A stretch of DNA of 64,000 nucleotides from UHGV virus genome UHGV-1558314; one strand, 5' to 3'. A model generated the notes under the pieces. It made no database searches. It saw only the letters and a list, made by a program, of their open reading frames with translations, and was not told the origin of the DNA. The stretch comes from a virus. Both the position numbers and the translations under genes were made by a program. Below are positions 1 through 18,057 of this stretch, one piece after another (the stretch's first letter is position 1; each line of letters opens with the position of its first letter).

Positions 1-365
1 CAACGAGGCAAATAACGTTCAATGCATTCAACTGCAGGATTGGCTGTCATGTACCACGCAAATTCTGCAGCAGCATTGAGCTTTTTCCATGGTCGTACGT
101 CAATCTTGATTTGCCGCTGTGAAGGGTCCTGAATAACTACAGACACATTCAGCAATTCTTTTGTTCGAGTCACTGTTTGTGCATTGTTGCCCTTTGATTC
201 TACAAACTCACCTCTACAATGAAGTTCATACAAAATTGAGCGAAATGCTTCTGTTGCAGTGTTTTCAATGATTGTCGTCTGTTGATAACATAAATTTGAC
301 GACAATGCTTCAGCATCATTGTACTTTATGCTGTCATTGTCATAAGGTGAATTTTTTGTGTGCAT
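1..365 (-). CDS. partial ORF running off window start (first ~121 aa); weak thymidylate-synthase-family-like region
   Basis: Own minus-strand translation: ATG at 365-363, open to position 1 (MHTKNSPYDNDSIKY...RPWKKLNAAAEFAWYMTANPAVECIERYLPR). Absent from ORF track because truncated. EFxWY resembles the ELLWF/ELEWY helix of ThyA/pyrimidine hydroxymethylases, recalled from memory only. Confidence 0.4.
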   Translation of the reverse strand, partial: MHTKNSPYDNDSIKYNDAEALSSNLCYQQTTIIENTATEAFRSILYELHCRGEFVESKGNNAQTVTRTKELLNVSVVIQDPSQRQIKIDVRPWKKLNAAAEFAWYMTANPAVECIERYLPR

Positions 366-389
366 ATTTTGGGATGTTTGTTTTTGTTA

Positions 390-1484
390 TCATACAACGA
401 CGGTATCTCGTTTGCAATCTGTTCTGTCGAATATCGAGCAACAATATGATGCAGATTGCTCTTTGATTGCAATAGCTTCGTCATTGTCAAGTGATGAAAT
501 ACCATCTATGTATGCTTTTGTATTGCCAGCGATGTCATCATTTGTTAGCAATGCTGCACGACGTTCAGTACCAAAGAAGCCAAAGCACAATTGACGCTGC
601 AATGCTTCACGAGAAATCTTGTCATCAAACTCGGATTTCATGTGTTGCATAAATTCGACAATATCATCAATGTCGCATTGAGTAAAGTCAATGTACAATT
701 TATGCATGTACTTGAATCGTTTGTAGTCTGTTGCAAGAATTTCTGGGTGCACAATGAACAACGTCTTTTTGCTGTCTATTGGATTTGCAATGACTGACGC
801 TTGAACATAATCAACAAGCACGCCAGATTCACGAAGTTGCTCAACTGTTTTGCCAAATATATGCCCAAACGTGTCATCAAACCACTTCAAGTATACTTCG
901 TTGTCTTCATCTTTTGATGCGCCAACAATGTAAATCTCATTGACTCCAAGCGCTTTAAGACGAGTGTCAGATAGCATCGTGTTCAATTGATGCTGCACAT
1001 ACAGCATTGGGCTGCTATGCAAAACTGTTTTGACAATCTCACAAGCAATGTCCATATATGCATAGTCAAGCTTTGCAGATTTTGACACATACACTGCACG
1101 TTGCTGCAATGGCTCAATTGCTGAGCATGTGGTCACAAAGTTGCCAACACATTCTGCTACTGCAATGTCATGCAAGTCATCTGCAATGTACACAATACTT
1201 GACAAGTCATCAAATGTTTGAACAAGTTGCTGAAGCTTTGTTTTGTAATTGCAGAGCATCAATGACTTGATGTTGCAATTGCCAAGCATTGTCTTGATGA
1301 GTCGTTGACCTGCTTCAGTGCTGTCACCAGAAATGACATGCACATCGCAGTCAAACCAGTTCAACATGTCGATTGCATGCCGAACGCCATATTGCATTTG
1401 TTTTGCGAACTTGCCAGATTCATTGAACAGCATTTCACCTGACATAATGCCGTCAAAGTCACATACGATTTGAAGTCTGTCCAT
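390..1484 (-). CDS. HAD-superfamily phosphatase, KdsC-like N-terminal domain plus uncharacterised C-terminal domain
   Basis: HAD motifs VCDFDGIM (DxDG), ISGDS, IADDLHD in the first ~165 aa; pattern resembles KdsC/YrbI sugar-phosphate phosphatases. Confidence 0.55.
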   Translation of the reverse strand: MDRLQIVCDFDGIMSGEMLFNESGKFAKQMQYGVRHAIDMLNWFDCDVHVISGDSTEAGQRLIKTMLGNCNIKSLMLCNYKTKLQQLVQTFDDLSSIVYIADDLHDIAVAECVGNFVTTCSAIEPLQQRAVYVSKSAKLDYAYMDIACEIVKTVLHSSPMLYVQHQLNTMLSDTRLKALGVNEIYIVGASKDEDNEVYLKWFDDTFGHIFGKTVEQLRESGVLVDYVQASVIANPIDSKKTLFIVHPEILATDYKRFKYMHKLYIDFTQCDIDDIVEFMQHMKSEFDDKISREALQRQLCFGFFGTERRAALLTNDDIAGNTKAYIDGISSLDNDEAIAIKEQSASYCCSIFDRTDCKRDTVVV

Positions 1485-1488
1485 GTTG

Positions 1489-1821
1489 CTACAATTTTGA
1501 AGTTAAGTCAATTCGAATTTTGTCTGCGTTGCTTTGGTCAACAAATCTGTCATCAAAGAAACATTCAACTACGACAAGCTTCTTTGAATTCACAAATTCG
1601 ATTAGCGATTTTTGCATTGCATCAAGTTGCTTCATGCATTTACAAAAGCTGCTGTATGACATGATTTGCTTTGGTAACATATCAAATGCGTCTGCAATTC
1701 GCTGATGAGCAATCTTTTTTGATGTTGCAATAATGACATCTGCTTTGTTGTCATTTGCATGATTGCCAAATATCGCAATATGGTAAACTTTCATTGTATG
1801 AGTGATTTTGCTGTTATACAT
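1489..1821 (-). CDS. hypothetical protein
   Basis: 110-aa ORF packed between neighbours; start may be internal (MKVYHIAIFG). Confidence 0.4.
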   Translation of the reverse strand: MYNSKITHTMKVYHIAIFGNHANDNKADVIIATSKKIAHQRIADAFDMLPKQIMSYSSFCKCMKQLDAMQKSLIEFVNSKKLVVVECFFDDRFVDQSNADKIRIDLTSKL

Positions 1822-1848
1822 TTATGTTATATATGCACATTGTGCCAG

Positions 1849-4800
1849 TTAACAAATTGATGACGTGCCATCAGTATTTGCTACAACTGTCAATGCACTA
1901 TCAAACTCATCTTGTTGCAATACATGGTCAACTATGAGTGTTTTGCGAATTGCAGAAAGCTTGGTAAGCAACTGCATCAACACTTGCTGATAATTGATAT
2001 TGTTGACATCATGCTCAGCGCCAACAATCTGCCCATTGCTAAGCTTGCCACTGATTTCGTCAATGAGCAAGATGTTGCCCACTTTGTTTAAGCGTTGAGT
2101 CAAAATGAGATGCACGATTGCAAGACCTGCGAAAGTTCCTTCCATGCCAGACATTTGACTTACACTTCGAATTGACTTCGAGCCCATCAAGTCAATCATC
2201 TTCAACACATTGTTGTCATTGATGTCAAAGAACACTCGGTAGTTCAATGAATCCAGCAAATCATTGAGCTGTGCATTCAGTGATGTTGCAATTGCTGCAA
2301 AGACATATGAAACTAAGCCTCGTTTGCTTGTGCACTGCTTATATGCATTGTACACCAAGTTTGCAATGTTCCACTTTTTCGAAGCTTGCAAATCTTTCTT
2401 GAGAGCTTCAATTCGCACATTGTTTGCTGATAAGTCTGCTTGCATTGTTGCAATTTCTGCATTGATGCTTAGCAGTTTTGAGTTCGCTTCAGTTTCATGC
2501 TGCTTAGCATCATCAATGTCGACTTGCAATGCAGCATTTGTTGTAATATGCTGCTGAGTTTGCTGTGCATGTTCAAGTGCAAATGCTGCAGCAGTCTTAT
2601 CAATCTCAAGTTGTTTAAGCGCAGACTCATATGTCGCTTTCTTATCATACTCTGCTTGAGCAATTTCAAGTTCAGCATTTATTGCAGCCAGTTCTGATTC
2701 TACTGTAGATTTTGATTGCAATACATCTTGCTTTGCTTGTTCAGCTTTACGTTTGATGTCTGCAAGTTGATTTGTGATATCTGCAATTTGCATTTTGACT
2801 GCTTCGACTTCAAGCAATGTTGCTGCAGTAGCCATTGGTTGTGCAATGAATGCATCTAAGTCTCTTTGCGCATTGACTACAGTTCTCTGCAAATCATTGA
2901 GCTTTTCTGCATGCATGTCATATGCTGCTTTGTGTGCTGGATTCAGTGCAGCAATTATTGCATTTGAATCTGTAACATCTATGATTGCTGCTTGCAGTTG
3001 CTCAATTTCATACTTCAAATTGCCAATTTTGACAACATTCTCATTGAATTGCTCTGTCTTTTGCGCACATTCTTGACGCAACTTAGCAAGCTCAGTTGAC
3101 AACCACAGCTTGTATGCTTGTCCTGTGCCAGATGTCAAGTCATTTGTACATACAGGGCATTTGTCGTTTTCAAGTTGCTTTTGCTTGTCTATAACATTGT
3201 CGATGTTTGTTTTTGCAGCAGATATTTCTGTTCTAAGTGCATTTTGAACAGTGTTGATGTCTTCAATTTGCTTTTGCAAAGCATCTATTTTTGCCCGAGT
3301 GTTTGCATTGTACGACTTGCCAAGATTTATCAGCACAGAATCAATGTGCTGCTTTGCTGCATCATATGCAAGCTTTGATTCATCAAGCTTTGTTCTGTAC
3401 AATGACTCTGCATGCGCAACTTCTTTCTGCACTTTTGCAGATAGCTCATTCTGTTTTGTAAGCAGCTCAGCATATGTATTGTGCAGCTGTGAGCCAGATG
3501 CTATGACATTTGTGTATGCTGTATTAGCTTCATTGTCAATATTAGTGAGTTGCTGCTCAATCTGTGCTTTTGCTGTTTGCAACTTAGACATATCTTGCAA
3601 TGCAAGTGCAGCAATGTCAAGCTCAACTTTGTGAATCTTTGCAATGATGCCATCGATATTTGCTGTTGCATCTTCTATAGTTAAGATGTCTGCAGGAATT
3701 TGATGTAGTTTCTTTGAGAGCTCTTCTACTTTTGCACGAGCTTTTGTAAGCTTCGCGGACCACTCTTTTTGATTATCTTGTCGTAACTGCAAAGAGTAAT
3801 TGAGTTCATTGCAAGTTGTATTGAGAGACTCAAGTTCTGCTTTTATTGCAACATCAGTCAATGCGGGCTTACTAAGGCCATCAAACAATGCAGCCTTTGC
3901 AGCATCATTAGAATTGCCAAGCTGTACAAATGTATTGATGCCAAGAGTATCAAGTAGCCAGTCATTCAATGAATTTGAGTCCATTGCAATGATTTGGTCA
4001 AGTAGTGTCTGATTGATACAAACATATCGCGACAATTCCCAGATAGAGCCAAAGATTGCATATAGCGTGTCTTTGATTTCATGCTGCGGCACTACGTAGT
4101 CATCTGACAATCTTACAAGCTGAACAGTCTCATTGACTGCTGACACGTTATCTCGCCATGAGCCATCTGCATTTATTCGAGAACCTCGTTTGAATTTGCG
4201 TTCAAGTGTTCGAATCAATTTGTAGTGAACATTTTGACCTGCTACTACATGCACAAAGACACAAGAAGCTTCAAGCTTATCATATGACTCATTGTCAATC
4301 AATTTGTCATTGAAGTATGTCAAAGCGTTCTGCTTTGTTGCTGCAGAAGACTGTTCAGCGTCAATAAAGCCAGTCAGCAGCCATTTGATAAGTCTGAAGA
4401 TTGTAGTCTTGCCATTGCCATTGTTGCCTCTAACTTGTGTAAGCTGTGCAAGATTGTCAAAGCTGACATCAACATCTTTCAATGCCATGAACTGATTTGC
4501 TTTAACATTTTGAATGACATATTTTGCAACTTCAGTGTCAAAAGACAATTTATCAATTTGTTCATCAATCAATGACTTGAACATGTCAACAAACTGCTGA
4601 GCATCTTCAGTAGCAACTATGGCATTGCGTTCAATGTATGCATTGACCCAGTCAAGTGCAGCGTCTTTAAGCCATTCAGCAGTTTGAACCTTTTGCAGCA
4701 AATTGTCGCCATTTGCGTCTACAGCATTGATTGAATCAATGACAGCAGAATCATACAGAATGTCAATTGCAGCAACAACATATGAACTTACAAGATTCTG

Positions 4801-5775
4801 TGCAATGCGCTCAACAATACCAGACAGTTCGGGCTTTGTGACCTTTGACTTGATTTTGATTTTATTGATGCGGCCAGGGTTGATGAGTGCAATCTTGTCT
4901 GTTTTGACATCATTATCAATTGTGATTGTATGATAATGCACAAGCTGCTCAAGTGGATGCCACTCTACCACAATTCGCTTGTTGTCAATATCGATGTCAA
5001 GCAAGTTGTAGCCATGTTCTGCAGTACCATGCTGTATTGCAGTGTCATTCAACAAATAGTCGCCTTCACCAAAATCTCTGACAATTGGCGAGCCGCAATA
5101 TGTTAATGTCTTATCACCAGCAACCCATATTGCATGCTTATGAATGTCACCCATTGCAACAAAGTTGCTATTAAATTGCATTGCATCTATACGACTGTCA
5201 TTGTCACCACGAACAATACAATCATCAAAGTTGACACAATTCTTTACAGGGTCATGGAACAGCTCAATGACACACATTGATGACAATGCTGCAATCTGCG
5301 ATTCATCAAGTGATGCCCAAGGCGAATATGTGCCACCAGACCACTTCTCATTTTGAGCCCATACTGCAGCAGCAAAACCAGGTGCAAGCAGTTCAACTCT
5401 TGAACTGTTGATATACTTGATTCGCTTGTCATCAATTGCAGTTACAAGCTTGTCAATGCTATCTGTCCACTGCATTTGTGAACCATCACCAGCATCAAAT
5501 GTGTTATCACGTTGCTTCAAATCATGATTGCCAGCAGTAATGACAATTTGAAGCTTGTCATTGACTTCAAGCATGCCTTTGAGCAGCTTAACAAACAGCG
5601 ACTCTTCAAGTGAATTGCTATTCCAATGCTCAAACACGTCGCCGACAATGAATACAAACTCAACTGACTTTGCTTTGTCAATTAGTTGTTTGTTGATGTG
5701 CTCATATTCTACGAAACGTCGTAAATGACCTTGTCGAACATTATATTGAATGTCTGCTATGTGAAGTGCTTTCAT
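1849..5775 (-). CDS. fused Mre11/SbcD-like nuclease and Rad50/SbcC-like ATPase
   Basis: N-terminal metallophosphoesterase motifs (LHIADIQ, GDVFEH, GNHD, GDIHKH); Walker A GNNGNGKTT; long coiled coil with CPVC zinc hook; C-terminal signature SGMEG, Walker B LLIDE, H-loop DHV. Confidence 0.8.
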   Translation of the reverse strand: MKALHIADIQYNVRQGHLRRFVEYEHINKQLIDKAKSVEFVFIVGDVFEHWNSNSLEESLFVKLLKGMLEVNDKLQIVITAGNHDLKQRDNTFDAGDGSQMQWTDSIDKLVTAIDDKRIKYINSSRVELLAPGFAAAVWAQNEKWSGGTYSPWASLDESQIAALSSMCVIELFHDPVKNCVNFDDCIVRGDNDSRIDAMQFNSNFVAMGDIHKHAIWVAGDKTLTYCGSPIVRDFGEGDYLLNDTAIQHGTAEHGYNLLDIDIDNKRIVVEWHPLEQLVHYHTITIDNDVKTDKIALINPGRINKIKIKSKVTKPELSGIVERIAQNLVSSYVVAAIDILYDSAVIDSINAVDANGDNLLQKVQTAEWLKDAALDWVNAYIERNAIVATEDAQQFVDMFKSLIDEQIDKLSFDTEVAKYVIQNVKANQFMALKDVDVSFDNLAQLTQVRGNNGNGKTTIFRLIKWLLTGFIDAEQSSAATKQNALTYFNDKLIDNESYDKLEASCVFVHVVAGQNVHYKLIRTLERKFKRGSRINADGSWRDNVSAVNETVQLVRLSDDYVVPQHEIKDTLYAIFGSIWELSRYVCINQTLLDQIIAMDSNSLNDWLLDTLGINTFVQLGNSNDAAKAALFDGLSKPALTDVAIKAELESLNTTCNELNYSLQLRQDNQKEWSAKLTKARAKVEELSKKLHQIPADILTIEDATANIDGIIAKIHKVELDIAALALQDMSKLQTAKAQIEQQLTNIDNEANTAYTNVIASGSQLHNTYAELLTKQNELSAKVQKEVAHAESLYRTKLDESKLAYDAAKQHIDSVLINLGKSYNANTRAKIDALQKQIEDINTVQNALRTEISAAKTNIDNVIDKQKQLENDKCPVCTNDLTSGTGQAYKLWLSTELAKLRQECAQKTEQFNENVVKIGNLKYEIEQLQAAIIDVTDSNAIIAALNPAHKAAYDMHAEKLNDLQRTVVNAQRDLDAFIAQPMATAATLLEVEAVKMQIADITNQLADIKRKAEQAKQDVLQSKSTVESELAAINAELEIAQAEYDKKATYESALKQLEIDKTAAAFALEHAQQTQQHITTNAALQVDIDDAKQHETEANSKLLSINAEIATMQADLSANNVRIEALKKDLQASKKWNIANLVYNAYKQCTSKRGLVSYVFAAIATSLNAQLNDLLDSLNYRVFFDINDNNVLKMIDLMGSKSIRSVSQMSGMEGTFAGLAIVHLILTQRLNKVGNILLIDEISGKLSNGQIVGAEHDVNNINYQQVLMQLLTKLSAIRKTLIVDHVLQQDEFDSALTVVANTDGTSSIC

Positions 5776-5795
5776 ATTCTAAATGAGATTTAGAT

Positions 5796-5846
5796 TATAT
5801 GTTGATATTGTACAACATGCAAAATGCACTTGCATTTTGATACAAC
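5796..5846 (-). promoter_or_regulatory. conserved intergenic motif copy 1 (putative promoter/operator) upstream of the Mre11-Rad50 gene
   Basis: tatatgttgatattgtacaacatgcaaaatgcacttgcattttgatacaac; contains palindrome TTGTACAA and inverted repeat CAAAATGCA-ct-TGCATTTTG; ends ~50 bp upstream of ATG 5775. Confidence 0.45.
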
Positions 5847-5854
5847 GTATGTCA

Positions 5855-6199
5855 TTATTTTGCAAGCATTTTGCTGATTGCATCTATCACAGTTTCACTG
5901 AGCAAGTAGTAGACAACGCTTATCAGCAATGATATCAGTACTGCAGCTGTGATAAATTGCAACGCATTCACAATTGCACGCACAAATGTTATCTGTGTGT
6001 TGTATGCAAGCACTATGCAGCATAGCACAATAATGACACACCAGACTACAATTGCATATGCAGGCATCAATGAATTTGTCCATATGCAGTACAATACAGT
6101 AGTTAGCATCAAAAATGCTATTGCTCTGATGACTGACACAATGATGTCTATGTAGAGCTTCATTACACGTAAATGAACTCTTGGCTTATGCGGTTTCAT
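5855..6199 (-). CDS. small multi-pass membrane protein (GtrA-like size and topology; speculative)
   Basis: Three to four hydrophobic helices. ORF-track start 6265 overlaps upstream gene; likely start at 6199 or 6163. Confidence 0.4.
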   Translation of the reverse strand: MKPHKPRVHLRVMKLYIDIIVSVIRAIAFLMLTTVLYCIWTNSLMPAYAIVVWCVIIVLCCIVLAYNTQITFVRAIVNALQFITAAVLISLLISVVYYLLSETVIDAISKMLAK

Positions 6200-7437
6200 C
6201 ATGACTTTATGTACAATTCTGCAAGTTGTCTGGTGTACAATCGTGGATTGTGATATGCTTTCCAATATGCAGTAGACTTTATTGCAGCAAGAATCTCATC
6301 ATAATGTTTGACTGCTTTTGCTACAACTTCATCAAGTACATGCAAATCTTCTACACTAACAAGCAGCCATTTTTCTACAATGTCAATGAATTCTTGATTG
6401 CAATTAAAGCCATATTTGTAGTTGCAAGTGTCAAGTACAAGTGGGATGCAGTCATTTGTCAGTGCTTCAAAAAATCTACGAAGACTGAAACAATTCTCAT
6501 CATATGATGGAATGCTTAATGTAAACTTGGCAGTCTTGATGAGTTGCAAATACTCTTCGTATGGAATCAGAGGACCATTGTGCTTCCACTGATTGTTATG
6601 TCGTCTTGTTGTGTACTTGAACAAAAACTTTGAACTGTCAAGCTCACAAAGATGGTCCATGCGTAAAATGTAGTTATAGCGGTCTCTTCTATCAGGCCAA
6701 CTGTCAGTCATTGCAAACACAAAGTCTCTTTGCTTGTCACATTTTGCTGACATACCTCTATGCTGACACATGCAGTACCAATATTGCTGCGATGGACTGA
6801 ACTCGAACTTTGAGTGATGCTCACTGCCATCTTTGCATTGTTGAACGTAAATATTGTCAGGCACAAAGTGAAAGTAGAAATGTCGAATTTGCAAGCCGTC
6901 AATGTAGTCAAGCTTATGCTGCAATGGGTCCTCACAGAAATTGTAACACTGAATGCGTTTTGCTGCAGCATACTCAGCAACTATGAATGTGCACACCCAT
7001 TGCAATGCGATGTCTTCACTCTTCAAAAAGTCAACAAGTGGCTCATTTGGATGCGCTTTGCATTCATTGAACATTTTGTACCACTTGCATTGCTCCATGT
7101 CATACTTGGAGACTGTATTGCCATTAAAAAATGACACAGTATCAATTTTGAATGCCTCAAGTTGTTTATGCACAATGTCGATTGCTTGTGCATATGTGAC
7201 AGTCTCATCAGACATTATTTGTGCAAACTTGATTGGATGCGCATGCAAATTTGCAATTGTGTCTGCTGACATTTTGCGCTGTGTATGATAATCGACATAC
7301 AAAAACTGACACTTGTCTGTAAGCAATTCAAGCATTGCTACAGATTTCCATCGAATTGCTTGAAAGAAATTGAAGTGCGCAGTTTGAAAAATGAGATGCG
7401 TAGGCTTGTCAGAATGAGTCAAAGTTTGCATGGACAA
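6199..7437 (-). CDS. glycosyltransferase-like protein (exostosin/GT47-like C-terminal motif), paralog of 10462..12018
   Basis: Shared motifs with 10462..12018: NFCEDPLQHKLDYID, PSQQYWY, FTLSIPSYDENCFSLRRFFEALTNDCIPLV (S-x-R-x-x-E...C-I/V-P-L-V). Confidence 0.5.
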   Translation of the reverse strand: MSMQTLTHSDKPTHLIFQTAHFNFFQAIRWKSVAMLELLTDKCQFLYVDYHTQRKMSADTIANLHAHPIKFAQIMSDETVTYAQAIDIVHKQLEAFKIDTVSFFNGNTVSKYDMEQCKWYKMFNECKAHPNEPLVDFLKSEDIALQWVCTFIVAEYAAAKRIQCYNFCEDPLQHKLDYIDGLQIRHFYFHFVPDNIYVQQCKDGSEHHSKFEFSPSQQYWYCMCQHRGMSAKCDKQRDFVFAMTDSWPDRRDRYNYILRMDHLCELDSSKFLFKYTTRRHNNQWKHNGPLIPYEEYLQLIKTAKFTLSIPSYDENCFSLRRFFEALTNDCIPLVLDTCNYKYGFNCNQEFIDIVEKWLLVSVEDLHVLDEVVAKAVKHYDEILAAIKSTAYWKAYHNPRLYTRQLAELYIKS

Positions 7438-8594
7438 ATGTCGCAGTTATGTTGATGTTTGTGTTTATTTATGAAGTCATATGTCACTGCAAAAAAGTGC
7501 TTTGCAATGTCATATCGAGTTTTCAAATATGCTGCTTGTCGTTCACAAAATGCTGCATAAATATCTGGGTGTTGTTTGAATGCTGCAATGCGTTGCTGTA
7601 CTTGTTCTGCAGAATGCACATATGACACTTTGCTCAAATATACATCATCTGCAAATAATCGTTTGTCTTTGTCAACTGCGCAATCAACAAAAGTTGCAAT
7701 TCGTGCAACAATTGCTTCACCGACACGATTTGGTATTAGCCCATATTGCTCATATTGCTGTTCGCCGATAGCAATGTGTGCTGCTGCATATGACATTGCA
7801 TATGGCACACTATAAAATGGCACACTAAAATCAAATGAACAATTTGACTGCAGCAATTGTGTTTGTGCATCAGACAATCTACTTGTCAAGTTGCCTGTAT
7901 ATTTGTGCTCACCAAGAAAACTTGAGCGACAGCCTGAATCTACATAGTATCGAATGACTTTGTTTATGCGACTGTCAGATAGCATATGCCAATCTCTTGT
8001 AGCATATATCAAGTCTACTGTTTTTGCGCCAATATGACGAGGCTCTATCGCAACATTGCTGTATGTTGGCAGCATAAACAATGGCAGCCATTTGACATTG
8101 TTGAACACTGAATGCTCATTTGACAAATTCATGCACTGGCTAAGTTCAAGTACTGGCTCATCATACACGCCATGTAGCTCAACTCTGCCTGCATGCACAA
8201 AGTTGACACGCTTAAATGGAAATCGCATATCAGTGCAAACTGTCATTCTTGCTGCAATAGACATTCGCCACATAGCATGCAGCTTAACAACTGCTTCTGC
8301 TTGAGGTCGAGGCAACATATTTAGCAAATCAATCCAGCCGCCCCACAAAATCCAAACATCATTTGAACAGATGTTGAATTGCAAACTCAATATGTCTTCT
8401 ACTGTTGTAGCAATAATGTCATGCCCATTGATGCTTGCAAGGTGTTTTCGTTGATTTGCAATAATAATGACTTGACTGAATGGAGACTCTGGAAATGACA
8501 CAAGCGCTTTTGCAAACAACACGGGTTCTTGCGACACCAAGTTGTTTGAGTATGGGTCGATTATGCAATCAAGCTTGTGTATGAAGAGTCTCAT
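7419..8594 (-). CDS. hypothetical protein, paralog of 12015..13181 (second gene of duplicated module)
   Basis: Shared segments with 12015..13181 (ILWGGW/IFWQGS, MRFPFKRV/LRFDFDKE, LIPNRVGEAIV/LLPNRWVEGVL); overlaps upstream gene by 19 nt. Confidence 0.5.
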   Translation of the reverse strand: MRLFIHKLDCIIDPYSNNLVSQEPVLFAKALVSFPESPFSQVIIIANQRKHLASINGHDIIATTVEDILSLQFNICSNDVWILWGGWIDLLNMLPRPQAEAVVKLHAMWRMSIAARMTVCTDMRFPFKRVNFVHAGRVELHGVYDEPVLELSQCMNLSNEHSVFNNVKWLPLFMLPTYSNVAIEPRHIGAKTVDLIYATRDWHMLSDSRINKVIRYYVDSGCRSSFLGEHKYTGNLTSRLSDAQTQLLQSNCSFDFSVPFYSVPYAMSYAAAHIAIGEQQYEQYGLIPNRVGEAIVARIATFVDCAVDKDKRLFADDVYLSKVSYVHSAEQVQQRIAAFKQHPDIYAAFCERQAAYLKTRYDIAKHFFAVTYDFINKHKHQHNCDICPCKL

Positions 8595-9325
8595 TTTGCA
8601 GATGATTCAAAAAATTTGTAGACATCGCAGTTAGCAATGTGGTCATTCCAAGCATCTTCAGAGTCTGCAACAAAGCCACAATGACAGCGTTTTGGCTGCC
8701 AAACTGGTTCAACTACTGCAGGCATTGCTTCTTCAATAGTGTTTGCAGGTTCATTATCTGCTGGCAATACTTCAACGTCTTCAACTTGTGCTGCATCTTG
8801 TTGTGCACGCTGCTCAATGACATTGCCCTCAAAGTCAAACTGAATGCCAGCTTGTTCTGCTTTTGTACGATTATTACGAGCTACGAACAAATACGCAAAG
8901 ATGAATTCGACAAGCGCTATGGCAAGTGACTTCAGTGCATTGACAAGAAGCATGATGCCTGTTGATAAATGGCCGTCAAAGCTCAAAAACACGAACACAC
9001 ATGTAAAGCATGACATAAACACTGCAATCAGTGGAATGTTCTTGTATTTTGGCAACAAATCAGAGTTGACTGATGTAAGCAACACAACGAATTGATAACC
9101 TATTGCAAGCCAATAGTCGCCAAACACTGCATAGATATGCGTAGTGATGCCAATAAGAAATGTGATAGTCACAATCATAATGAGCAACACACTTGTCAGA
9201 AAGTCTGCAATAGAATTGCTGAGCTTGTCATACCAGTGTTTGTTGACAATTGACGTGTTGGCTACGCGCACTTTACTAAGTGCATCTATGCCGCTTTTGA
9301 TATTTGATTGTGCTTTCATACACAT
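8591..9325 (-). CDS. membrane protein with C-terminal Cys/His cluster
   Basis: Several hydrophobic helices; C-terminal CHCGF...HIANCD. Confidence 0.5.
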   Translation of the reverse strand: MCMKAQSNIKSGIDALSKVRVANTSIVNKHWYDKLSNSIADFLTSVLLIMIVTITFLIGITTHIYAVFGDYWLAIGYQFVVLLTSVNSDLLPKYKNIPLIAVFMSCFTCVFVFLSFDGHLSTGIMLLVNALKSLAIALVEFIFAYLFVARNNRTKAEQAGIQFDFEGNVIEQRAQQDAAQVEDVEVLPADNEPANTIEEAMPAVVEPVWQPKRCHCGFVADSEDAWNDHIANCDVYKFFESSAK

Positions 9326-9331
9326 ATAACG

Positions 9332-9469
9332 TTATATCATATCTACACACAAAGCAAATGCTACTGCAAGTGCAGCCATAATTGCATATACGACTATCGA
9401 TGCAGTATAATCTGATTCAGGATTCCACTTATCAGGTGTGTTAAGCTTGTGATACTTGTCTCGTCTCAT
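9332..9469 (-). CDS. small ORF (45 aa) with C-terminal hydrophobic helix, below ORF-track cutoff
   Basis: Own translation: MRRDKYHKLNTPDKWNPESDYTASIVVYAIMAALAVAFALCVDMI. Confidence 0.25.
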   Translation of the reverse strand: MRRDKYHKLNTPDKWNPESDYTASIVVYAIMAALAVAFALCVDMI

Positions 9470-9572
9470 CTTGAGTCAAAAAATGATGGCTGCTGCTACA
9501 TTTTGTGAAATCATGTGCAGCAGCCATCTGGCAGGTTTCTTGCTTTGTAAAGCTTGGATAGAGGATGGATTT

Positions 9573-9623
9573 TATATGTTGATATTGTACAACATGCAAA
9601 ATGTATTTGCATTTTGATACAAC
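9573..9623 (-). promoter_or_regulatory. conserved intergenic motif copy 2
   Basis: tatatgttgatattgtacaacatgcaaaatgtatttgcattttgatacaac; near-identical to copy 1 (2-3 substitutions). Confidence 0.45.
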
Positions 9624-9631
9624 ATATATTG

Positions 9632-9847
9632 TCATTTTGCACAGTCTGATGCAATTAAATCTTTGTCAAAGCATTCATCTATAATGTCTTCAATAAGATA
9701 CGCTTCGACATTGTTAAGCTTCAAGATATCTACGAGTTTTGCTTTGATATCGCAAGCTAATGCAGATTCGACTGTATGCAATATGACTGATGATACGACA
9801 TGCTTGTCTGTCATCATTTGTAATTGCTGTGGTGTTACTCTACTCAT
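9632..9847 (-). CDS. hypothetical small protein
   Basis: 71-aa ORF abutting the kinase-like gene. Confidence 0.35.
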   Translation of the reverse strand: MSRVTPQQLQMMTDKHVVSSVILHTVESALACDIKAKLVDILKLNNVEAYLIEDIIDECFDKDLIASDCAK

Positions 9848-10416
9848 GCGCCAAGTTCAGCTAAGCATTTCAACACATTGTCTTGCAGACTTGCATTGTT
9901 GTCAATTTCGACAATATGCAATGGTGAGTTCTTTCGCCACTCATCATATGCAGCAATCATTTCATTGCGTTTGCTGACATCAATGTTGACATCACCGCAA
10001 AAATTATCGACAAAATCTGGCACAACATCACGCTTGCATAAGAACACTACGTGCGGCAATGTTGCAAGCTTCTTTTCATATGCTTCAAAGAATGCTTGAT
10101 GCTTATCAGTGTGCAGCTCTTTGTAAAGCGTTGTGTTGAAGATTTGATGCGTGATGAATGAACGGTCACACAAAAACGTTGCTTTGCCAAAGCCTTGAGA
10201 GTCATTTCCAATGAACTCTAAGAAGAAGCGCCAATCATAAAAGAACGCTTCATTGAGGTCCCAAGGTTCGGGCATTGGGTCATCACCTGACTCATGCTGC
10301 TGCCACCAAGAACGAGATGTTCGTTTGCAATTGATAAACCATGGGCGCCACTTCATCAATTCATTGATGAGTGTTGTTTTGCCTGAAGCTTCTACACCTT
10401 CAAATATCGCTATCAT
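9844..10416 (-). CDS. P-loop nucleotide kinase (dNMP kinase / thymidylate-kinase-like)
   Basis: N-terminal IAIFEGVEASGKTT Walker A and FLCDRS (DRY/DRS-like) motif; resembles phage dNMP kinases and thymidylate kinases. Confidence 0.55.
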   Translation of the reverse strand: MIAIFEGVEASGKTTLINELMKWRPWFINCKRTSRSWWQQHESGDDPMPEPWDLNEAFFYDWRFFLEFIGNDSQGFGKATFLCDRSFITHQIFNTTLYKELHTDKHQAFFEAYEKKLATLPHVVFLCKRDVVPDFVDNFCGDVNIDVSKRNEMIAAYDEWRKNSPLHIVEIDNNASLQDNVLKCLAELGA

Positions 10417-10461
10417 TGTGTATTATGTTTGATTTTTGATTACAGTACAACGTAGTTATGC

Positions 10462-12018
10462 TCATTGCACTTCTACGAATGGCTCTTTCAACACAAAGCT
10501 GTCACCATTGCAACATGCGGCTGAGCCATCGTCTGCATCAAGTGCGCATGACATATCAGACTTGCAGAACTTGCAATATGAACATGACCATGCATGACTC
10601 ATAAAGTTGTTTGCTTCACAAATTACACAGCGCTCATGTGAAAGTGTATTGTCGCAATTGTCACAAGACTTCTTGATTGGCACATCTTTATTGATATATG
10701 CAAGATGCAATGCAATATCATACACAAAGTCACCCGTATATTGCTGAATGAAATCAGTGTGCCACAACTCTTTTAACAATTGTGTATGTCTATATGGCTG
10801 AACAATGTCTTCAAGATGCTGCAAGTCATCATCGCTAACCATGAGCTTCTTAATGACAAACTGTTTGAACTGCGGCCATCTGTCAAACATATAGAGTTTG
10901 CATGAGTTGTGCACAAGTGGAACACAGCCAAGCACAATGCTTTCACAGAATCTACGCAAACTAAAACAGTTTGCATCATATGACGGCACAATCAATGTGA
11001 ATCTGCTATGCTTGATGAGTTCAAGGTATGTGTCATATGGCAGTAGCTTGTCTGACAATGGCTGCTGTTGCTTGTCCCTGCTGAAAAATCTGAACACAAT
11101 GCCTTTATCAATTGCATCTTGATTGTGCAGATGCATGAGTTTGTTGATGAGTTCTGTGCGTTCAGTTTTGTCTCGCCAAGTATTCGTCAATGCAAATGCA
11201 AAATTCAGTCGCTTGTCATCAAACGTCGCTTCAATGTCATCCCAAGTTTTGTCATGCAAATACCAGTATTGCTGTGATGGGCACCATCCATAATATGCAA
11301 TAGCGTCTTGTTCTGCTGTAACGTCATACACATATGCAGAATTGTATTCAAGGCCAAGCCCTTTGACATTGTTGCAGTCATGAAAGTACCAATGCTGCAC
11401 TTTGAATATCTTTGATGCACTGAATGCGCTTTCATATGGCCCTGAATAGCGATAGTCAATGTAATTGAGCTTGTGCTGCAATGGGTCTTCGACAAAGTTG
11501 TTTATGACTGTGCCTTGTTGTTTGCCATTAGTCTTGCGAGCATTCAATGCAATATTGTACTGCATAATGACTGACAGCATCTCATACACTACATACATGA
11601 GTGCTTTGTAGACTGAGCCTGCTGCGTCAATTAGCGGCAAATCACGTTTGACTGATGCAGTACCAAATGTCTTGCAATATGCAGAAAATGTATCAAGTTC
11701 TGCCTGTTGAAATGAATTGCATGCGCCATTGAATATGTTGAATGTTGCAATGTAGCTCATATTACAAGATGTCATTGACATATCAAGACGCTTCATAATG
11801 TCAGCAATGCGACATTGAGCAAAATCTGACACATCAACATATTTGACATGATGACCTGATGCAGTCAAGCCAACTGCGACTTCTTTCATTTGTGGCACAA
11901 AGCCTACTACAATGAACAAGTCATCTTTGTTTGCTCGTTCAAACATTGCTGCACTTTTCCAAGTCAATGAATTGAAAAAGTCTATGTAGCCAGTCTGTGT
12001 GATGATATGTGTTCTCAT
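10462..12018 (-). CDS. glycosyltransferase-like protein (exostosin/GT47-like motif) with C-terminal Cys-rich extension
   Basis: NFVEDPLQHKLNYID, PSQQYWY, FTLIVPSYDANCFSLRRFCESIVLGCVPLV; Cys-rich tail (CDNCDN...CVICE...CSYCKFC). Confidence 0.5.
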   Translation of the reverse strand: MRTHIITQTGYIDFFNSLTWKSAAMFERANKDDLFIVVGFVPQMKEVAVGLTASGHHVKYVDVSDFAQCRIADIMKRLDMSMTSCNMSYIATFNIFNGACNSFQQAELDTFSAYCKTFGTASVKRDLPLIDAAGSVYKALMYVVYEMLSVIMQYNIALNARKTNGKQQGTVINNFVEDPLQHKLNYIDYRYSGPYESAFSASKIFKVQHWYFHDCNNVKGLGLEYNSAYVYDVTAEQDAIAYYGWCPSQQYWYLHDKTWDDIEATFDDKRLNFAFALTNTWRDKTERTELINKLMHLHNQDAIDKGIVFRFFSRDKQQQPLSDKLLPYDTYLELIKHSRFTLIVPSYDANCFSLRRFCESIVLGCVPLVHNSCKLYMFDRWPQFKQFVIKKLMVSDDDLQHLEDIVQPYRHTQLLKELWHTDFIQQYTGDFVYDIALHLAYINKDVPIKKSCDNCDNTLSHERCVICEANNFMSHAWSCSYCKFCKSDMSCALDADDGSAACCNGDSFVLKEPFVEVQ

Positions 12019-13181
12019 GATTTGAATGTTTGTTCAAGAATTGTGTAACACTGCACAATCATTACTGCAAGAGCTTTTTGCTGTGCTTGTTTGCAATCAT
12101 CAAAATTTGTGGGCGCAGTGCGTACGCGTGTTTTGCTATTAAGTGTCGCAAATGTCGCGTAGTCATCGAAGCCTATAATGTCAGCAAATAGGGCAATTGG
12201 CTTATAATCTACAAGTATGTTGCAGCAATTTGCAAGTACGCCTTCAACCCATCGATTTGGCAGCAAGTCTGCTTGCACATACAATGAATCACCAACTACA
12301 AGATTGTATGCCGACTGTGACATTACACGCGGCATTGCATCGTATGTGACTTTGTATTTAAGTGTAAAGTTTGGTGCTGCTGATTTAATCGCAGACAAAA
12401 TTGTGTCATCAAGATATGATGTTATGAGACACGTGTCGCACATATGTATGACAAATTGTTCAATCACACTTCTACGATACTCGTCAAGATATGTGAAACC
12501 TGCACAACTTGCACAGCATGCATATTGCTGCTTTATGTCAGCAAAGCTACGCACATGAGCTTCAATTGCATTTTGCATCGTTACTTGTAGTTTAAGCAAT
12601 CTTGGCTCTTTAATGTATTGAAGCTTCAATGCATTGACTGCTGCAATGATTTGCAATGGGGCAAACACACATTGAGACTCATCAAGCCAAGCGTATTTGA
12701 GATTTTTGTGCTGGCATAGATGCGTAATGTTGTCTTTTTGTGATTCTAAGTACTCTTTGTAATTGTGCAATCGCTTTGTCAATGTGCATTCTTTATCAAA
12801 GTCGAATCGCAAATCAGTTGTTAGTGTAAATTTGCGAGCGTTTGACAAACACCATGTTTTGAATGCATTCCACAGAACATCTTGCTGAAATTCTGAGCAA
12901 TGTTCAAGAGCAGCCTTTGAACCTTGCCAGAATATTGCGCAATCATCTGATTTTGCGCACTTCAGCATATCTTGCCATGCATGTATGTTATTGATAATAT
13001 GCACATTATCATACACAAGCTCATCAAGTATTGCATGCTTGTTCTCAGGGTCGCCAAACACATATACAGCATCAAACATTGTCTGCACAAAACCTGCAAA
13101 TGCAATAGGTTCTGTATGCTTAAGATGCTGTACGTCTGAACGCACGCATGTGTCAAATTTCAAAATGAATAGTTTGCTCAT
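12015..13181 (-). CDS. hypothetical protein, paralog of 7419..8594
   Basis: See 7419..8594; overlaps upstream gene by 4 nt. Confidence 0.5.
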   Translation of the reverse strand: MSKLFILKFDTCVRSDVQHLKHTEPIAFAGFVQTMFDAVYVFGDPENKHAILDELVYDNVHIINNIHAWQDMLKCAKSDDCAIFWQGSKAALEHCSEFQQDVLWNAFKTWCLSNARKFTLTTDLRFDFDKECTLTKRLHNYKEYLESQKDNITHLCQHKNLKYAWLDESQCVFAPLQIIAAVNALKLQYIKEPRLLKLQVTMQNAIEAHVRSFADIKQQYACCASCAGFTYLDEYRRSVIEQFVIHMCDTCLITSYLDDTILSAIKSAAPNFTLKYKVTYDAMPRVMSQSAYNLVVGDSLYVQADLLPNRWVEGVLANCCNILVDYKPIALFADIIGFDDYATFATLNSKTRVRTAPTNFDDCKQAQQKALAVMIVQCYTILEQTFKS

Positions 13182-13878
13182 ATACTTTGCAATTATCTAT
13201 TACATGTTGATATTGTACTTCATCTATGATGTGATTTGCAATGACACCATATGAGGCGTCATACATTGGCATCTTCTCATATGACAATGCTGCGTCAAGA
13301 TTGCATATCACATAATTGCAATGCACAATGTCATCTACATTGTCACTAACTGCTACGATATTGACACACTTTGCAAGAAATGCATCATCAAAGTCTACTT
13401 GATTGCATGCAACCTCATAATCTGCTGCGCTTCTTGGGTACCAATATAACTCAATGCCAGCACTACTAAGTAGTCGCAAGCCATCTATGTGATGATACAA
13501 GTCAACAAAATGCACTTGCTTAACGCCTGCTTGCAAAATAAGCTTTGCGCAATCAATGCATGGACTGTATGTTACATACAGCACTGCGTCATTTGCGGTC
13601 GCATTGCCATATTTGCACAGCTTCATCAATGCGTTTGATTCTGCATGCAAAACTTCTTTGTTGGTTTTGATACCTGCCGATGTTGCATGCTCACAACAAT
13701 TTGACATGCCAGTTGGCATGCCATTGTAGCCATCTGAAATTATGCAACCATTTTTTACAAGCAATGCGCCAACTTTTGCTCGCTGAGCATATGAATTTAA
13801 TGACCAAAGCTCAGCCATTTTAAGATATATGAGATTTCGTTGAAACTGCTTTGTTTCAGACCAAGTTAGCCATTTCAT
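13153..13878 (-). CDS. dCMP deaminase (cytidine/deoxycytidylate deaminase family) with C-terminal extension
   Basis: Zinc-binding motifs VLHAESNAL (HxE) and SPCIDCAKLI (PCxxC). Confidence 0.85.
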   Translation of the reverse strand: MKWLTWSETKQFQRNLIYLKMAELWSLNSYAQRAKVGALLVKNGCIISDGYNGMPTGMSNCCEHATSAGIKTNKEVLHAESNALMKLCKYGNATANDAVLYVTYSPCIDCAKLILQAGVKQVHFVDLYHHIDGLRLLSSAGIELYWYPRSAADYEVACNQVDFDDAFLAKCVNIVAVSDNVDDIVHCNYVICNLDAALSYEKMPMYDASYGVIANHIIDEVQYQHVIDNCKVYEQTIHFEI

Positions 13879-13882
13879 ATGC

Positions 13883-15265
13883 TTACAGTGAGTTTATAAT
13901 TTTGATAAAGTCTGTTACAATGTTTGTATGCAACTCAATGAGATAGTTGTCTTGTAATGTCATAAGCTCATCAAGTTCATCTACACTTAATGACTTGAAG
14001 ACTTCTGCACAATGCTTGGCATTTTTGATGTGTGCGACTTTATGATACTTGATAAAGTCAGGACACACACAATTATTCACGTACATACAAGGCAAGCCTG
14101 CAAGCATTGATTCAGTTGCTCTGAATGTAATTGCGTTGCATTGTTTCATATTCTCTTCACACACAATGTATGCAAAGTCGAACTGCGACAAGTATGTTAA
14201 CATGTCAAAATACTTGATTGTGCCATTATAGACATGTGGCATATCAATGTCGATATTGCCGACAACATGAGTTTCGATGTCTGCGCAGCCAAGCAAATCA
14301 ATGACTTCTTGTTTGCGTTCAGCGCACATGTCATTCCAAGCAACCATCGGCATTGCAGTAGTCAACTTGCCTGATTGCAATTTTGCTAAACGTTTTTCGT
14401 TATGTGATGCATACAATGGAATGCCTTCAAGTCTTGCATGCTGAATTGTGTTGACATTGATTTCTGTCAGCATTGACAACGCATTATGCATGTTCTGTGC
14501 TTGTGTGACAACTGTCATCTTTTTGCAGCGCAATCTAAAGTTTGCAATGTGTGGCACGAGTCGTAAATCATACCACAGCCATACAATGTCACCCTTCCAT
14601 GACTCAATAAGCTGCTTGTGCTGTTTGTAGATGACTGACTGACTCATCAAGTCATTCATTGCTGAGCATACAATGTACAACACACCATATTTGTCAATTG
14701 AGTGCTGCACATAGTCAACTGAGCAGCATAGCACATCTTTGTCGAAAAGTTTTGGGTCATGCACTTCTGCATCATCTACAATAAGATGTGCCTTGTATTG
14801 ATGCTGCTTTGTTGCATCAATGATGCGAGCAATTGCAAAGCATTCTCTACTTTGAATGTCTGTCTTATCTTGTCGTGGTTGGTCTTGTGTTCGTACAGGA
14901 TATGCAGGCTTAAGTATTACAGGCACAAAATGTGTTTTTGCAGAATATGGTGCATCTACTGCAGCAAACTCCGCGTTGCATCGTTGTGAATGCAGATGTC
15001 GTGCATATGATTGCAACAATTCATGAATCATTGCAATGTACTCTTTCAATTCAAACAGCTCGTGTACAGTTGCGTTTGTTATGTCGACTACGACAGTTTG
15101 TCGCACAATTGGATACACACAAATAACGTAATCATTATATGATAGTGGAATGCCTATAAATGCTGAGCATCTGTTTCGAAGCCATGCAATGCAATCAGCG
15201 TCAAACACAATTTCATATTGCTGCTGCAAAGCATTTAATTGCGCTATAATCAAATCATTGTGCAT
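13883..15265 (-). CDS. GT-B fold glycosyltransferase (GT1/GT4-like)
   Basis: C-terminal FAYIVCEENMKQCNAITFRATESMLAGLPCMYVN resembles the E-x7-E / EAMA-G-P donor-binding motif. Confidence 0.45.
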   Translation of the reverse strand: MHNDLIIAQLNALQQQYEIVFDADCIAWLRNRCSAFIGIPLSYNDYVICVYPIVRQTVVVDITNATVHELFELKEYIAMIHELLQSYARHLHSQRCNAEFAAVDAPYSAKTHFVPVILKPAYPVRTQDQPRQDKTDIQSRECFAIARIIDATKQHQYKAHLIVDDAEVHDPKLFDKDVLCCSVDYVQHSIDKYGVLYIVCSAMNDLMSQSVIYKQHKQLIESWKGDIVWLWYDLRLVPHIANFRLRCKKMTVVTQAQNMHNALSMLTEINVNTIQHARLEGIPLYASHNEKRLAKLQSGKLTTAMPMVAWNDMCAERKQEVIDLLGCADIETHVVGNIDIDMPHVYNGTIKYFDMLTYLSQFDFAYIVCEENMKQCNAITFRATESMLAGLPCMYVNNCVCPDFIKYHKVAHIKNAKHCAEVFKSLSVDELDELMTLQDNYLIELHTNIVTDFIKIINSL

Positions 15266-15289
15266 ATTCGTATTGTTTTATCATATATG

Positions 15290-15405
15290 AATATATTGTA
15301 CAACATGTATTGAGCTTTTGCACAACATATGTTGTTAAAATATCATCATTGTACAACATAAAGCGCATATTTGCACGTTGTGTTGCTAAAAATATTGTTA
15401 TTGTA
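15290..15405 (-). promoter_or_regulatory. cluster of three TTGTACA(A/C) boxes upstream of gene 13883..15265
   Basis: attgtacaacatg, cattgtacaacat, ttattgtacacaa within ~110 bp. Confidence 0.4.
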
Positions 15406-15440
15406 CACAAAACAAGCAGACTGCAATTGCAGTCTGCTTG
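15405..15440 (-). terminator. rho-independent terminator after gene 15488..16033
   Basis: Perfect 28-bp palindrome caagcagactgcaattgcagtctgcttg followed on the minus strand by TTTTGTG. Confidence 0.6.
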
Positions 15441-15487
15441 CACTTGTTATTAACCCTTAAAATCAATGACACTATGTCAATGTCATT

Positions 15488-16033
15488 TTAGTTTGCGTCC
15501 GCTTCCTGCGATTCAGCTTCAGCAGACTTTTCAGCAAGTTCTGCTTGCTTGCGTTTGTCAATTTCCTGCAAGCAAGTATCAAGTGCAGTAGCATTTTCAC
15601 GATACTGCTCGTCGAACTTCTGTACTTCTGCTGCAGGTGCCTCAAGCAGATTGTTGAGCGAATCCAGTGCTGCAGCAACCTGAGCACCCTTGAACTTCGT
15701 TGTAGATACTGCACGAACAATGTACTTGAACTCGAAGATGCCCATGGTGCTTCGTCCTTTTGCAGCGTCAGTAGCCCATGCAGCAAATGCGACAACATCA
15801 CGCATAAGTCGCATATCAAACTCAAGCTGCGGCAAAACAAGTTCGCACACATTACGTGCAACAGACTTGAGCAATTCGCCATCAGTCGTGACAATCATCT
15901 GCATTGACTGCGATTTGTCTTCGAGTTCTTTTCGAGCTTCACTGAGCAACTTTTCAAGTGCTTTCAGCTGCTCCATTGTCATGTCTTTGAGTTCAGTTGC
16001 AGGCTTTGCTGCAACAGCATTTTTCTTTGCCAT
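15488..16033 (-). CDS. coiled-coil protein, function unknown
   Basis: 181 aa, Lys/Glu-rich heptad-like segments; followed by a hairpin terminator. Confidence 0.5.
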   Translation of the reverse strand: MAKKNAVAAKPATELKDMTMEQLKALEKLLSEARKELEDKSQSMQMIVTTDGELLKSVARNVCELVLPQLEFDMRLMRDVVAFAAWATDAAKGRSTMGIFEFKYIVRAVSTTKFKGAQVAAALDSLNNLLEAPAAEVQKFDEQYRENATALDTCLQEIDKRKQAELAEKSAEAESQEADAN

Positions 16034-16046
16034 ATGAATAAATGTG

Positions 16047-16607
16047 TTATGAGATGATTTTGATGATTGCTAATGCTAATGTTGCTAAGCACAATGCGCT
16101 TAACAGAATCTTCCATATTGTGGCAGAATATCTTAACAATCGTAAGGGCTGTTCTTCTGCATATGCAAGATATTCGAGTTCAGCAACATTTGACATCACT
16201 GTTCTAATGATGCCATTGCCAGTGTAGTTATGTCGAAGTGTTACGACATCAAGCAGATTGTTTTGCACAAGTTGATTGAAGACAGGTTCCATGCGTTCAT
16301 GCATGATGTGCTCAACAATTGCGACTGAGTCAAGTGCTTCAAATTCTGTGCCCTGTATTGTTGCAATGACTTCAGCAGGGAGCTGCGTATGCACAATGAG
16401 ACATCGTTGTTCATTGAACAATGCAAATCCACTGTTCTTCAAAAATGTCAAAAAGTACTCATGCTCAGGGTCATTAAGATAGTCAAGCAGATATTGATGC
16501 CACTTGTTAGCTTCTGCATCAAGCTTGTTTAGACGTCGAATGACACCAAATGGCCATAGAGCCAATTTGGTATTGTGGAGGACGGTTTTATATTTCATAT
16601 GCATCAA
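16047..16607 (-). CDS. hypothetical protein with C-terminal hydrophobic helix
   Basis: 186-aa ORF. Confidence 0.45.
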   Translation of the reverse strand: MMHMKYKTVLHNTKLALWPFGVIRRLNKLDAEANKWHQYLLDYLNDPEHEYFLTFLKNSGFALFNEQRCLIVHTQLPAEVIATIQGTEFEALDSVAIVEHIMHERMEPVFNQLVQNNLLDVVTLRHNYTGNGIIRTVMSNVAELEYLAYAEEQPLRLLRYSATIWKILLSALCLATLALAIIKIIS

Positions 16608-18033: not shown

Positions 18034-18057
18034 AGTGTATGAACTGCTTGTAGCGTG

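Follow-up and report, generated by a model that had tools for sequence, protein, structure and literature searches.

A probable single-chain Mre11-Rad50 (SbcDC) nuclease of a large phage, with altered metal-ligand motifs

Results

One open reading frame with the motifs of both subunits

We analysed a stretch of 64,000 nucleotides of the UHGV virus genome UHGV-1558314, hereafter the window. The subject is one uninterrupted open reading frame (ORF) on its minus strand, at positions 1849-5775. The ORF list and the translation give 1308 codons plus a stop. It sits in a long minus-strand gene array with approximately 40% G+C. A first-pass annotation, made from the sequence alone, had described it as a single-polypeptide fusion of Mre11/SbcD and Rad50/SbcC, with no strand given. 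The ORF, the Pfam and PHROG matches, and the AlphaFold2 (AF2) models compared with Foldseek bear this out, with SbcD/Mre11 at the N-terminus and Rad50 at the C-terminus. The features are listed in Table 1.

Table 1. Features of the fused gene and its upstream region, in window positions (aa, amino acids; nt, nucleotides).
Feature	Residues (aa)	Position (nt)	Strand	Evidence or remark
Fused Mre11/SbcD-Rad50/SbcC protein, complete ORF	1-1308	1849-5775	-	Translation; PHROG 35725 over full length
Calcineurin-like phosphoesterase (Mre11/SbcD nuclease) core	1-235	5071-5775	-	Pfam, family profile against PDB, Foldseek, conservation
Motif I, ADIQ	7-10	5746-5757	-	Coordinates verified by translation
Motif II, GDVFEH	45-50		-	
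Motif III, GNHD	82-85		-	
Motif IV, H174	174		-	
Motif V, GDIH	209-212	5140-5151	-	Coordinates verified by translation
Mre11-type capping domain, beta-rich, including conserved GEG (236-238)	236-342	4750-5070	-	AF2, Foldseek
Helix-loop-helix and linker of about 10 residues (408-416), nuclease module to ATPase	343-416	4528-4749	-	AF2, conservation
Rad50/SbcC ABC-ATPase N-lobe	417-640	3856-4527	-	Pfam AAA_23, invariant Walker A, PDB Rad50 heads
Walker A, GNNGNGKT	450-457	4405-4428	-	Coordinates verified by translation
Ascending coiled-coil arm	641-867	3175-3855	-	AF2 helices with short breaks
Apex with zinc-hook motif		3127-3174	-	Conservation, family profile
Zinc-hook motif, CPVC	873-876	3148-3159	-	Coordinates verified by translation
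Descending coiled-coil arm	884-1148	2332-3126	-	AF2 helices antiparallel to the ascending arm
Rad50/SbcC ATPase C-lobe	1149-1308	1852-2331	-	Conserved signature, Walker B, H-loop
Signature, SGME	1209-1212	2140-2151	-	
Walker B, ILLIDE	1235-1240	2056-2073	-	
D-loop, degenerate			-	L-S where Rad50 has L-D
H-loop, DH	1283-1284	1924-1929	-	
Promoter-like TTTGCA-18-TATAAT		5794-5823	-	Consensus scan, 10/12 matches; ends 19 nt upstream of the ATG; weak evidence

The motifs that the first-pass annotation had named for both halves are all present. However, two of the metallophosphoesterase motifs differ from the canonical form. They read DxQ and GDxH.

Identity of the domains

Both enzymatic parts are recognized by Pfam. 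Metallophos covers aa 1-95 with 25.4 bits, over its gathering threshold (GA) of 21.5, and AAA_23 covers aa 427-690 with 41.7 bits (GA 27). The Rad50_zn_hook model matches aa 862-883 below its threshold, with 12.6 bits against a GA of 24.3. Likewise, the NCBIfam models give partial sbcd and Rad50 matches.

A phmmer search of the PDB with the single sequence returned marginal matches only (E 0.03-0.6), and a profile of the family was needed. With this profile, SbcD is matched in both E. coli and S. aureus (E 9e-12 to 6e-9), and Mre11 of archaea at E approximately 2e-7. So, the proposed N-terminal nuclease has profile support besides the Metallophos match. For the other half, it finds two crystal structures of the Rad50 hook, 1l8d and 6zff (E approximately 2e-6). 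Around Walker A, there are matches to the PDB Rad50 heads 3qf7 and 3tho.

The PHROG 35725 profile aligns nearly end to end, with aa 2-1304 on profile positions 8-1366 of 1376 (E 7.1e-113, 379 bits). In the sequence search, the canonical SbcC proteins form the first tier that is not fused. The fusion architecture is far from what chance would give, since both Pfam domains exceed GA, the PHROG alignment spans the protein, and the motifs vary little or not at all among 113 homologues of at least 1000 aa.

Predicted structure

We built the AF2 models in two parts, aa 1-430 and aa 400-1308. The first part has a predicted local distance difference test (pLDDT) score of 86.3, and the strands of the capping domain (239-341) exceed 85. 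Its best 50 Foldseek matches in the PDB are all SbcD or Mre11 (E 5e-13 to 7e-8). The Mre11-type core and the capping fold are both present in the model. It aligns with 7dog (nuclease and capping domain of SbcD) and with 4lty. Template modelling scores, normalized to the target, are 0.6-0.68 against crystal structures of nuclease plus capping domain, and 0.65-0.68 for 7dog and 4lty.

The second part (pLDDT 82.4) adopts an SMC-type fold. More precisely, it consists of a split ABC head and two long antiparallel arms of roughly 230-265 residues each, whose tip is formed by the CPVC loop. In the PDB, Rad50 from the MRN complex of C. thermophilum ranks first (7zr1, E 4.9e-20), followed by SMC, Smc5/6, JetC, MukB, and LmuB. 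Solved structures and the window protein are only 12-17% identical in sequence.

Between the capping domain and the ATPase, the model places two helices, at approximately 366-383 and 389-407. After them come about 10 poorly ordered residues and then the first ATPase strand. The helices show amphipathic conservation among the 113 homologues, at 369/372/373/376/377 and at 395/399/402/403/407. By its position and form, we infer that this helix-loop-helix is the equivalent of the Rad50-binding domain of Mre11. Yoshida et al. predicted that 9-12 residues are needed to bridge the C-terminus of Mre11 and the N-terminus of Rad50 (PMC3175470). The linker of about 10 residues agrees with this prediction.

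Conserved residues and two changed metal ligands

Residues were counted in an alignment of 114 sequences, the query and 113 fused homologues of at least 1000 aa, with a median identity of 26-32%. In the nuclease, D8, G45, D46, N83, H84, H174, and H212 are kept in 113-114 sequences. The Walker A residues G455 and K456 are invariant (114/114). Likewise, the hook cysteines C873 and C876 occur in 113 sequences with a spacing of 3 residues. In the C-lobe, S1209/G1210/M1211, D1239/E1240, and H1284 are kept in 108-113 sequences (113 for D1239/E1240 and 108 for H1284). The ascending arm of the coiled coil has the lowest conservation of the protein (0.19).

All five phosphoesterase motifs can be recognized, with a different residue at two of the ligand positions, and this systematic change was missed in the first pass. 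Q10 aligns with H10 of SbcD, and motif I is DxQ instead of DxH. D210 aligns with H222 of SbcD, and motif V is GDxH instead of GHxH. Position 10 presents glutamine in 105 sequences and histidine in 8; position 210 presents aspartate in 104 and histidine in 10. Taken as pairs, Q/D occurs in 95 sequences, Q/H in 10, and H/D in 8. The canonical H/H pair occurs in none of the 114. By a regular-expression motif count, it occurs in 18 of the 26 SbcD-like matches of standalone size (330-499 aa) from the same search. Covariation between Q10 and D210 was considered and rejected, since Q/D, Q/H, and H/D all occur and only H/H is absent.

The ATPase also presents substitutions. Its signature is SGM(E/Q), with methionine in place of the second glycine in 110 sequences. 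The D-loop aspartate of Rad50/SbcC is a serine here, and the family shows asparagine in 83 sequences, serine in 19, and aspartate in 6.

Glutamine and aspartate side chains are able to ligate metals. We read the glutamine of motif I and the aspartate of motif V as putative ligands of a conserved variant of the active site and not as decay, because all other catalytic residues are kept in 113-114 of 114 sequences. A remodelled catalytic and regulatory core could differ from the split SbcCD or Mre11-Rad50 complexes in its metal preference or in the coupling of ATP to the nuclease. We propose this tentatively and regard it as rather doubtful. Covalent tethering might have called for such an adaptation, or else the action on hypermodified DNA, to which the glycosyltransferase, deoxycytidine monophosphate (dCMP) deaminase, and thymidylate synthase genes nearby point.

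The same substitutions can be explained in another way. The N-terminal phosphoesterase might be a catalytically dead scaffold, a pseudo-nuclease, and only the Rad50-like ATPase and the tether would be functional. Two canonical metal-ligand positions are indeed changed, and the H/H pair, common among the standalone-size matches, is absent from all 113 fused homologues. Nevertheless, D8, D46, N83, H84, H174, and H212 persist at approximately 30% identity, and this is the pattern of an active site. The substitutions are themselves conserved, and Mimivirus R555 presents the same change of histidine to aspartate (PMC3175470). A dead scaffold seems unlikely to us, and a variant site that probably keeps its activity is preferred.

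The Rad50/SMC-type head and defence proteins

Part of the protein resembles a defence component. The LmuB models of PADLOC match the ATPase and the coiled coil (aa 435-1295, best E 7e-16). Lamassu LmuB structures appear among the fold matches at E approximately 1e-11, and the fold matches to LmuB, JetC, and MukB-like proteins, which have the Rad50/SMC-type head and the coiled coil in common with the window protein, range from E 1e-11 to 1e-16. The ORF might then belong to a phage-borne conflict system, where a Lamassu-like SMC sensor joined to a nuclease effector would serve for superinfection exclusion or for attack on the host's DNA or that of competitors. T4 gp46 and gp47 also contribute to host DNA degradation.

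However, LmuB belongs to the same Rad50/SMC superfamily, and cross-matches with it are expected. Rad50 is the best structural match, and SbcC is the first non-fused tier in sequence. The nuclease is specifically of the Mre11/SbcD type, with its capping domain, whereas the LmuB-type proteins have no fused Mre11-type nuclease. The window protein also presents the invariant CxxC hook. In addition, the gene is kept across a lineage of large phages, among replication and nucleotide genes. It is the behaviour of a core gene, not of a patchy accessory defence gene. Its context is that of phage DNA metabolism and not the defence operon of LmuB, as seen in scans of the neighbours against PHROGs and Pfam only. 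The window holds no second SbcD-like ORF and no other ORF like this family; LmuA/LmuC-type partners were not searched for. We regard a conflict system as quite improbable, and a recombination nuclease of the Mre11-Rad50 type remains the preferred reading of the ORF.

Continuity of the reading frame across the fusion point

A strain from other samples, 94.9% identical in nucleotides, has the same ORF of 3927 nt without indels. It differs at 201 nucleotides, distributed as 29/17/155 over the three codon positions. With 154 synonymous and 36 non-synonymous codon changes, most of the substitutions were synonymous, and the non-synonymous ones are mostly in the coiled coil. The junction (aa 341-430) has 10 synonymous changes and none that is non-synonymous. 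The lack of indels, the changes at the junction, and the homologues described below mean that the ORF is under purifying selection through the fusion point.

The first homology search gave 15 clusters with 18-97% identity, all of 1284-1401 aa. Searching aa 1-430 against 1.84 billion representatives returned 178 proteins at E ≤1e-3. It added 144 proteins to the 15 of the first search, for a collection of 159. A length of 1000 aa or more is reached by 113 of these, so that nearly all of the closest relatives of the nuclease domain are fused proteins. The spacing between the histidine of motif V and the lysine of Walker A has a median of 248 residues (interquartile range 244-271) in these homologues. 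Comparison with related phages, one of the checks proposed in the first pass, found the single ORF also in finished isolate genomes, namely Tenacibaculum phages PTm1, PTm5, and pT24 and Chryseobacterium phages MA9V-1 and MA9V-2. An identical ORF is present on two further contigs, one of 175 kb. We dropped both as independent support because they are nucleotide-identical to the window.

The first-pass annotation had asked whether a frameshift in sequencing or assembly merged adjacent sbcD-like and sbcC-like genes, and although the two activities are separate genes in model systems and the contigs with the identical ORF possibly come from the same sample and give weak independent support, the indel-free strain with its silent changes at the junction, the uniform length of the 15 clusters, the spacing kept in homologues of at least 1000 aa, and the five isolate genomes leave this explanation a negligible probability.

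Genomic context

Besides the fused protein, the window encodes a DNA helicase, a single-stranded DNA-binding protein (SSB), and a dCMP deaminase. Three glycosyltransferase-like proteins and a sigma-factor-like protein are also encoded, as are a baseplate wedge and a tape-measure-like protein. The 175-kb contig carries in addition a thymidylate synthase (L002, 8411-9292), just outside the start of the window. PHROG and Pfam scans of the immediate neighbours were mostly empty, and the ORFs with matches resemble glycosyltransferases and genes of nucleotide metabolism. So, the local context, with its DNA-metabolism genes, gives general support only. In the promoter and terminator scan, promoter-like sites in the region were not above the shuffled expectation.

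The fused gene recurs beside a thymidylate synthase, on the contig of the window (L002), on L004/L005, and on L007. Two distant homologues of the DxH/GDxH type, in phage-like contigs, are found beside a thymidylate synthase, a ligase-type OB domain, and a helicase. On L007, a distant phage-like contig, the thymidylate synthase next to one of this type (P0102) is split by an intein with a LAGLIDADG domain (7302-9356).

Directly upstream of the nuclease gene there is a cluster of glycosyltransferase-like ORFs on the minus strand (6199-7437, 7419-8594, and 10462-12018). The second of them matches a beta-glucosyltransferase PHROG (E 1.4e-7). On the same strand, these ORFs are accompanied at 9844-10416 by a thymidylate-kinase-like N-terminus and at 13153-13878 by a dCMP/cytidine deaminase (PF00383, E 5.5e-21). 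The glycosyltransferase cluster, the deaminase, and the thymidylate synthase together suggest that the phage DNA is hypermodified, perhaps with a glycosylated hydroxymethyl-pyrimidine.

Further along, a homing-endonuclease-like ORF (21853-22989, minus strand; phrog_3339, E 3.7e-10) adjoins the SSB (20568-21701) and the DNA helicase (18892-20487). No PHROG match at E 1e-5 was obtained for three giant minus-strand ORFs, at 32603-36931, 50896-54303, and 54322-58119 (1442, 1135, and 1265 aa). Their location next to the baseplate wedge (42447-44159) and the tape-measure-like ORF (58125-61847) makes it probable that they encode novel proteins of the virion or tail. Within this structural-gene region, an ORF of 298 aa (46988-47884, minus strand) matches the PHROG RNA polymerase sigma factor (E 3.8e-26). 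The relative MA9V-1 also has an RpoS-like sigma factor, according to its genome paper.

Finally, the minus strand carries nearly all long ORFs (at least 150 aa) of the window (1-64000), and most of the few on the plus strand fall inside longer minus-strand ORFs. The cumulative GC skew falls almost monotonically over the same range. Both are consistent with one long co-directional block of transcription or replication.

Discussion

A putative Mre11-Rad50 machine in one chain

The folds, the motifs, the single-chain architecture, the purifying selection, and the conservation over the lineage all point in the same direction. The models and the sequence make it probable, in our view, that the ORF encodes a functional and self-contained Mre11-Rad50 (SbcDC) machine in one chain, whose N-terminal part is a two-metal phosphoesterase.

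By analogy with the solved SbcCD and Mre11-Rad50 complexes, two chains would dimerise through their nuclease domains, their ATP-engaged heads, and the zinc hook. Such a dimer would be the equivalent of the M2R2 heterotetramer, with the 1:1 stoichiometry fixed by the covalent linkage. The helix-loop-helix would pack in cis on the base of the coiled coil of its own chain. With binding and hydrolysis of ATP, the head would alternate between two states, one closed and one in which DNA is clamped for cutting. In the cutting state, the nuclease would cleave DNA ends, hairpins, or protein-blocked ends. In this way, DNA ends may be resected for the recombination-dependent replication and repair of the phage, and host DNA possibly broken down, as with T4 gp46/gp47. 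The most likely function, by this analogy, would be that of an ATP-dependent DNA-end and hairpin nuclease for recombination-dependent replication. According to Iyer et al., practically all jumbo phages have SbcC and SbcD among their core recombination genes (PMC7824862).

Several points weigh against this interpretation. The Q-loop has no confident assignment, as the candidate Q589 is present in only 67 of 114 sequences. Two metal ligands, the second glycine of the signature (methionine here), and the D-loop aspartate are non-canonical, and the kinetics, the metal preference, or even the activity could differ. Dimerisation, docking in cis, and zinc binding come by inference only. In the literature searched, we found no biochemical data for this or any natural fusion. 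Finally, the genome has at least 175 kb, of which the window covers 64 kb, and split SbcC and SbcD genes could lie elsewhere.

Comparison with known systems

The family is already present in phage databases as PHROG 35725. Its members in PTm1, PTm5, pT24, MA9V-1 (ORF70), MA9V-2, and PAU (gp288) are named metallo-phosphoesterase or DNA repair exonuclease of jumbo myoviruses, and those of the Tenacibaculum and Chryseobacterium phages have the same full-length architecture of approximately 1300 aa. They are only about 25% identical to the window protein. By tblastn, they align with 98-100% coverage and approximately 26% identity. In Sphingomonas phage PAU, tblastn aligned gp288 (JQ362498, 212912-213445) over the C-terminal ATPase lobe only. 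In the uncultured 735-kb phage LR756501 (280457-281908), it aligned aa 77-616 only. The MA9V-1 genome paper lists ORF70 only as "metallo-phosphoesterase" and gives a PAU protein as the best match of this fused ORF. For some fused homologues, the automatic annotation of the Joint Genome Institute (JGI) already names both SbcCD subunits. A megablast of window positions 1-20000 against 50,697 phage records gave no match. As this collection holds no match at the nucleotide level, the window has no close sequenced relative there and represents a new lineage within the PHROG 35725 family.

The first-pass annotation had called the covalent fusion unusual. It holds in comparison with T4 gp46/gp47 and SbcCD, but it is overstated, given PHROG 35725 and the natural fusions published earlier. 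Yoshida, Claverie & Ogata described natural Mre11/Rad50 fusions in 2011, in Mimivirus R555 and its relatives, Bacillus phage 0305phi8-36, C. kluyveri plasmids, a Deferribacter megaplasmid, and several eukaryotes (PMC3175470). The same authors found that these fusions are not monophyletic. They also found R555-like reads abundant in viral-fraction aquatic metagenomes and suspected a phage origin. The domain order is the one observed here (Mre11-like N-terminal and Rad50-like C-terminal), and the length is similar (1351 aa in R555). The published fusions also have the capping domain, a region of helix-loop-helix length, and a short linker, as in the window protein. R555 has aspartate for His206 of P. 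furiosus in motif V, as here. In contrast, by its published description, R555 keeps DxH in motif I, where the window protein has DxQ and 105 of the 114 aligned sequences carry the glutamine. Judged by sequence, DxQ is a feature particular to this phage clade.

Mimivirus R555 is not found by name among the 120 listed matches of the profile search, and tblastn at E 1e-5 did not find Bacillus phage 0305phi8-36. In the literature searched, we found no later paper characterising a natural fusion. A fold search of BFVD, a collection of viral predicted structures, gave the pT24, PTm1, and H9NCG5 proteins (1301-1318 aa) as the best matches, with E 1e-29 to 3e-32. Fused Mimiviridae proteins of 1193-1389 aa come next (E 6e-18 to 6e-13), from Klosneuvirus, Tupanvirus, Yasminevirus, Pyramimonas orientalis virus, Harvfovirus, Tetraselmis virus, and Catovirus. 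They are interleaved with the split phage SbcD/gp47 proteins and mostly ahead of them.

The exact family is thus recorded and natural fusions have been known since 2011; what is mildly new is the remodelled catalytic centre. Current understanding is not overturned. A family annotated only as "metallo-phosphoesterase" gains the annotation of a probable complete Mre11-Rad50 recombination nuclease in one chain. A natural single-chain Mre11-Rad50 with fixed stoichiometry could suit structural and biochemical work. Likewise, the conserved DxQ/GDxH variant poses a small and testable question on metal use in Mre11-type nucleases.

Finally, the split complexes, which are SbcCD of E. coli, archaeal and eukaryotic Mre11-Rad50, and T4 gp47/gp46, have the same folds as the window protein. 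They share with it the motif set I-V, Walker A and B, the signature, the H-loop, and the CxxC hook. As in them, a helix-loop-helix is predicted between the nuclease and the ATPase. However, the split complexes consist of two polypeptides with DxH/GHxH, SGG(E/Q), and the D-loop aspartate, whereas here one chain carries DxQ/GDxH and SGM(E/Q), with mostly asparagine or serine at the D-loop position.

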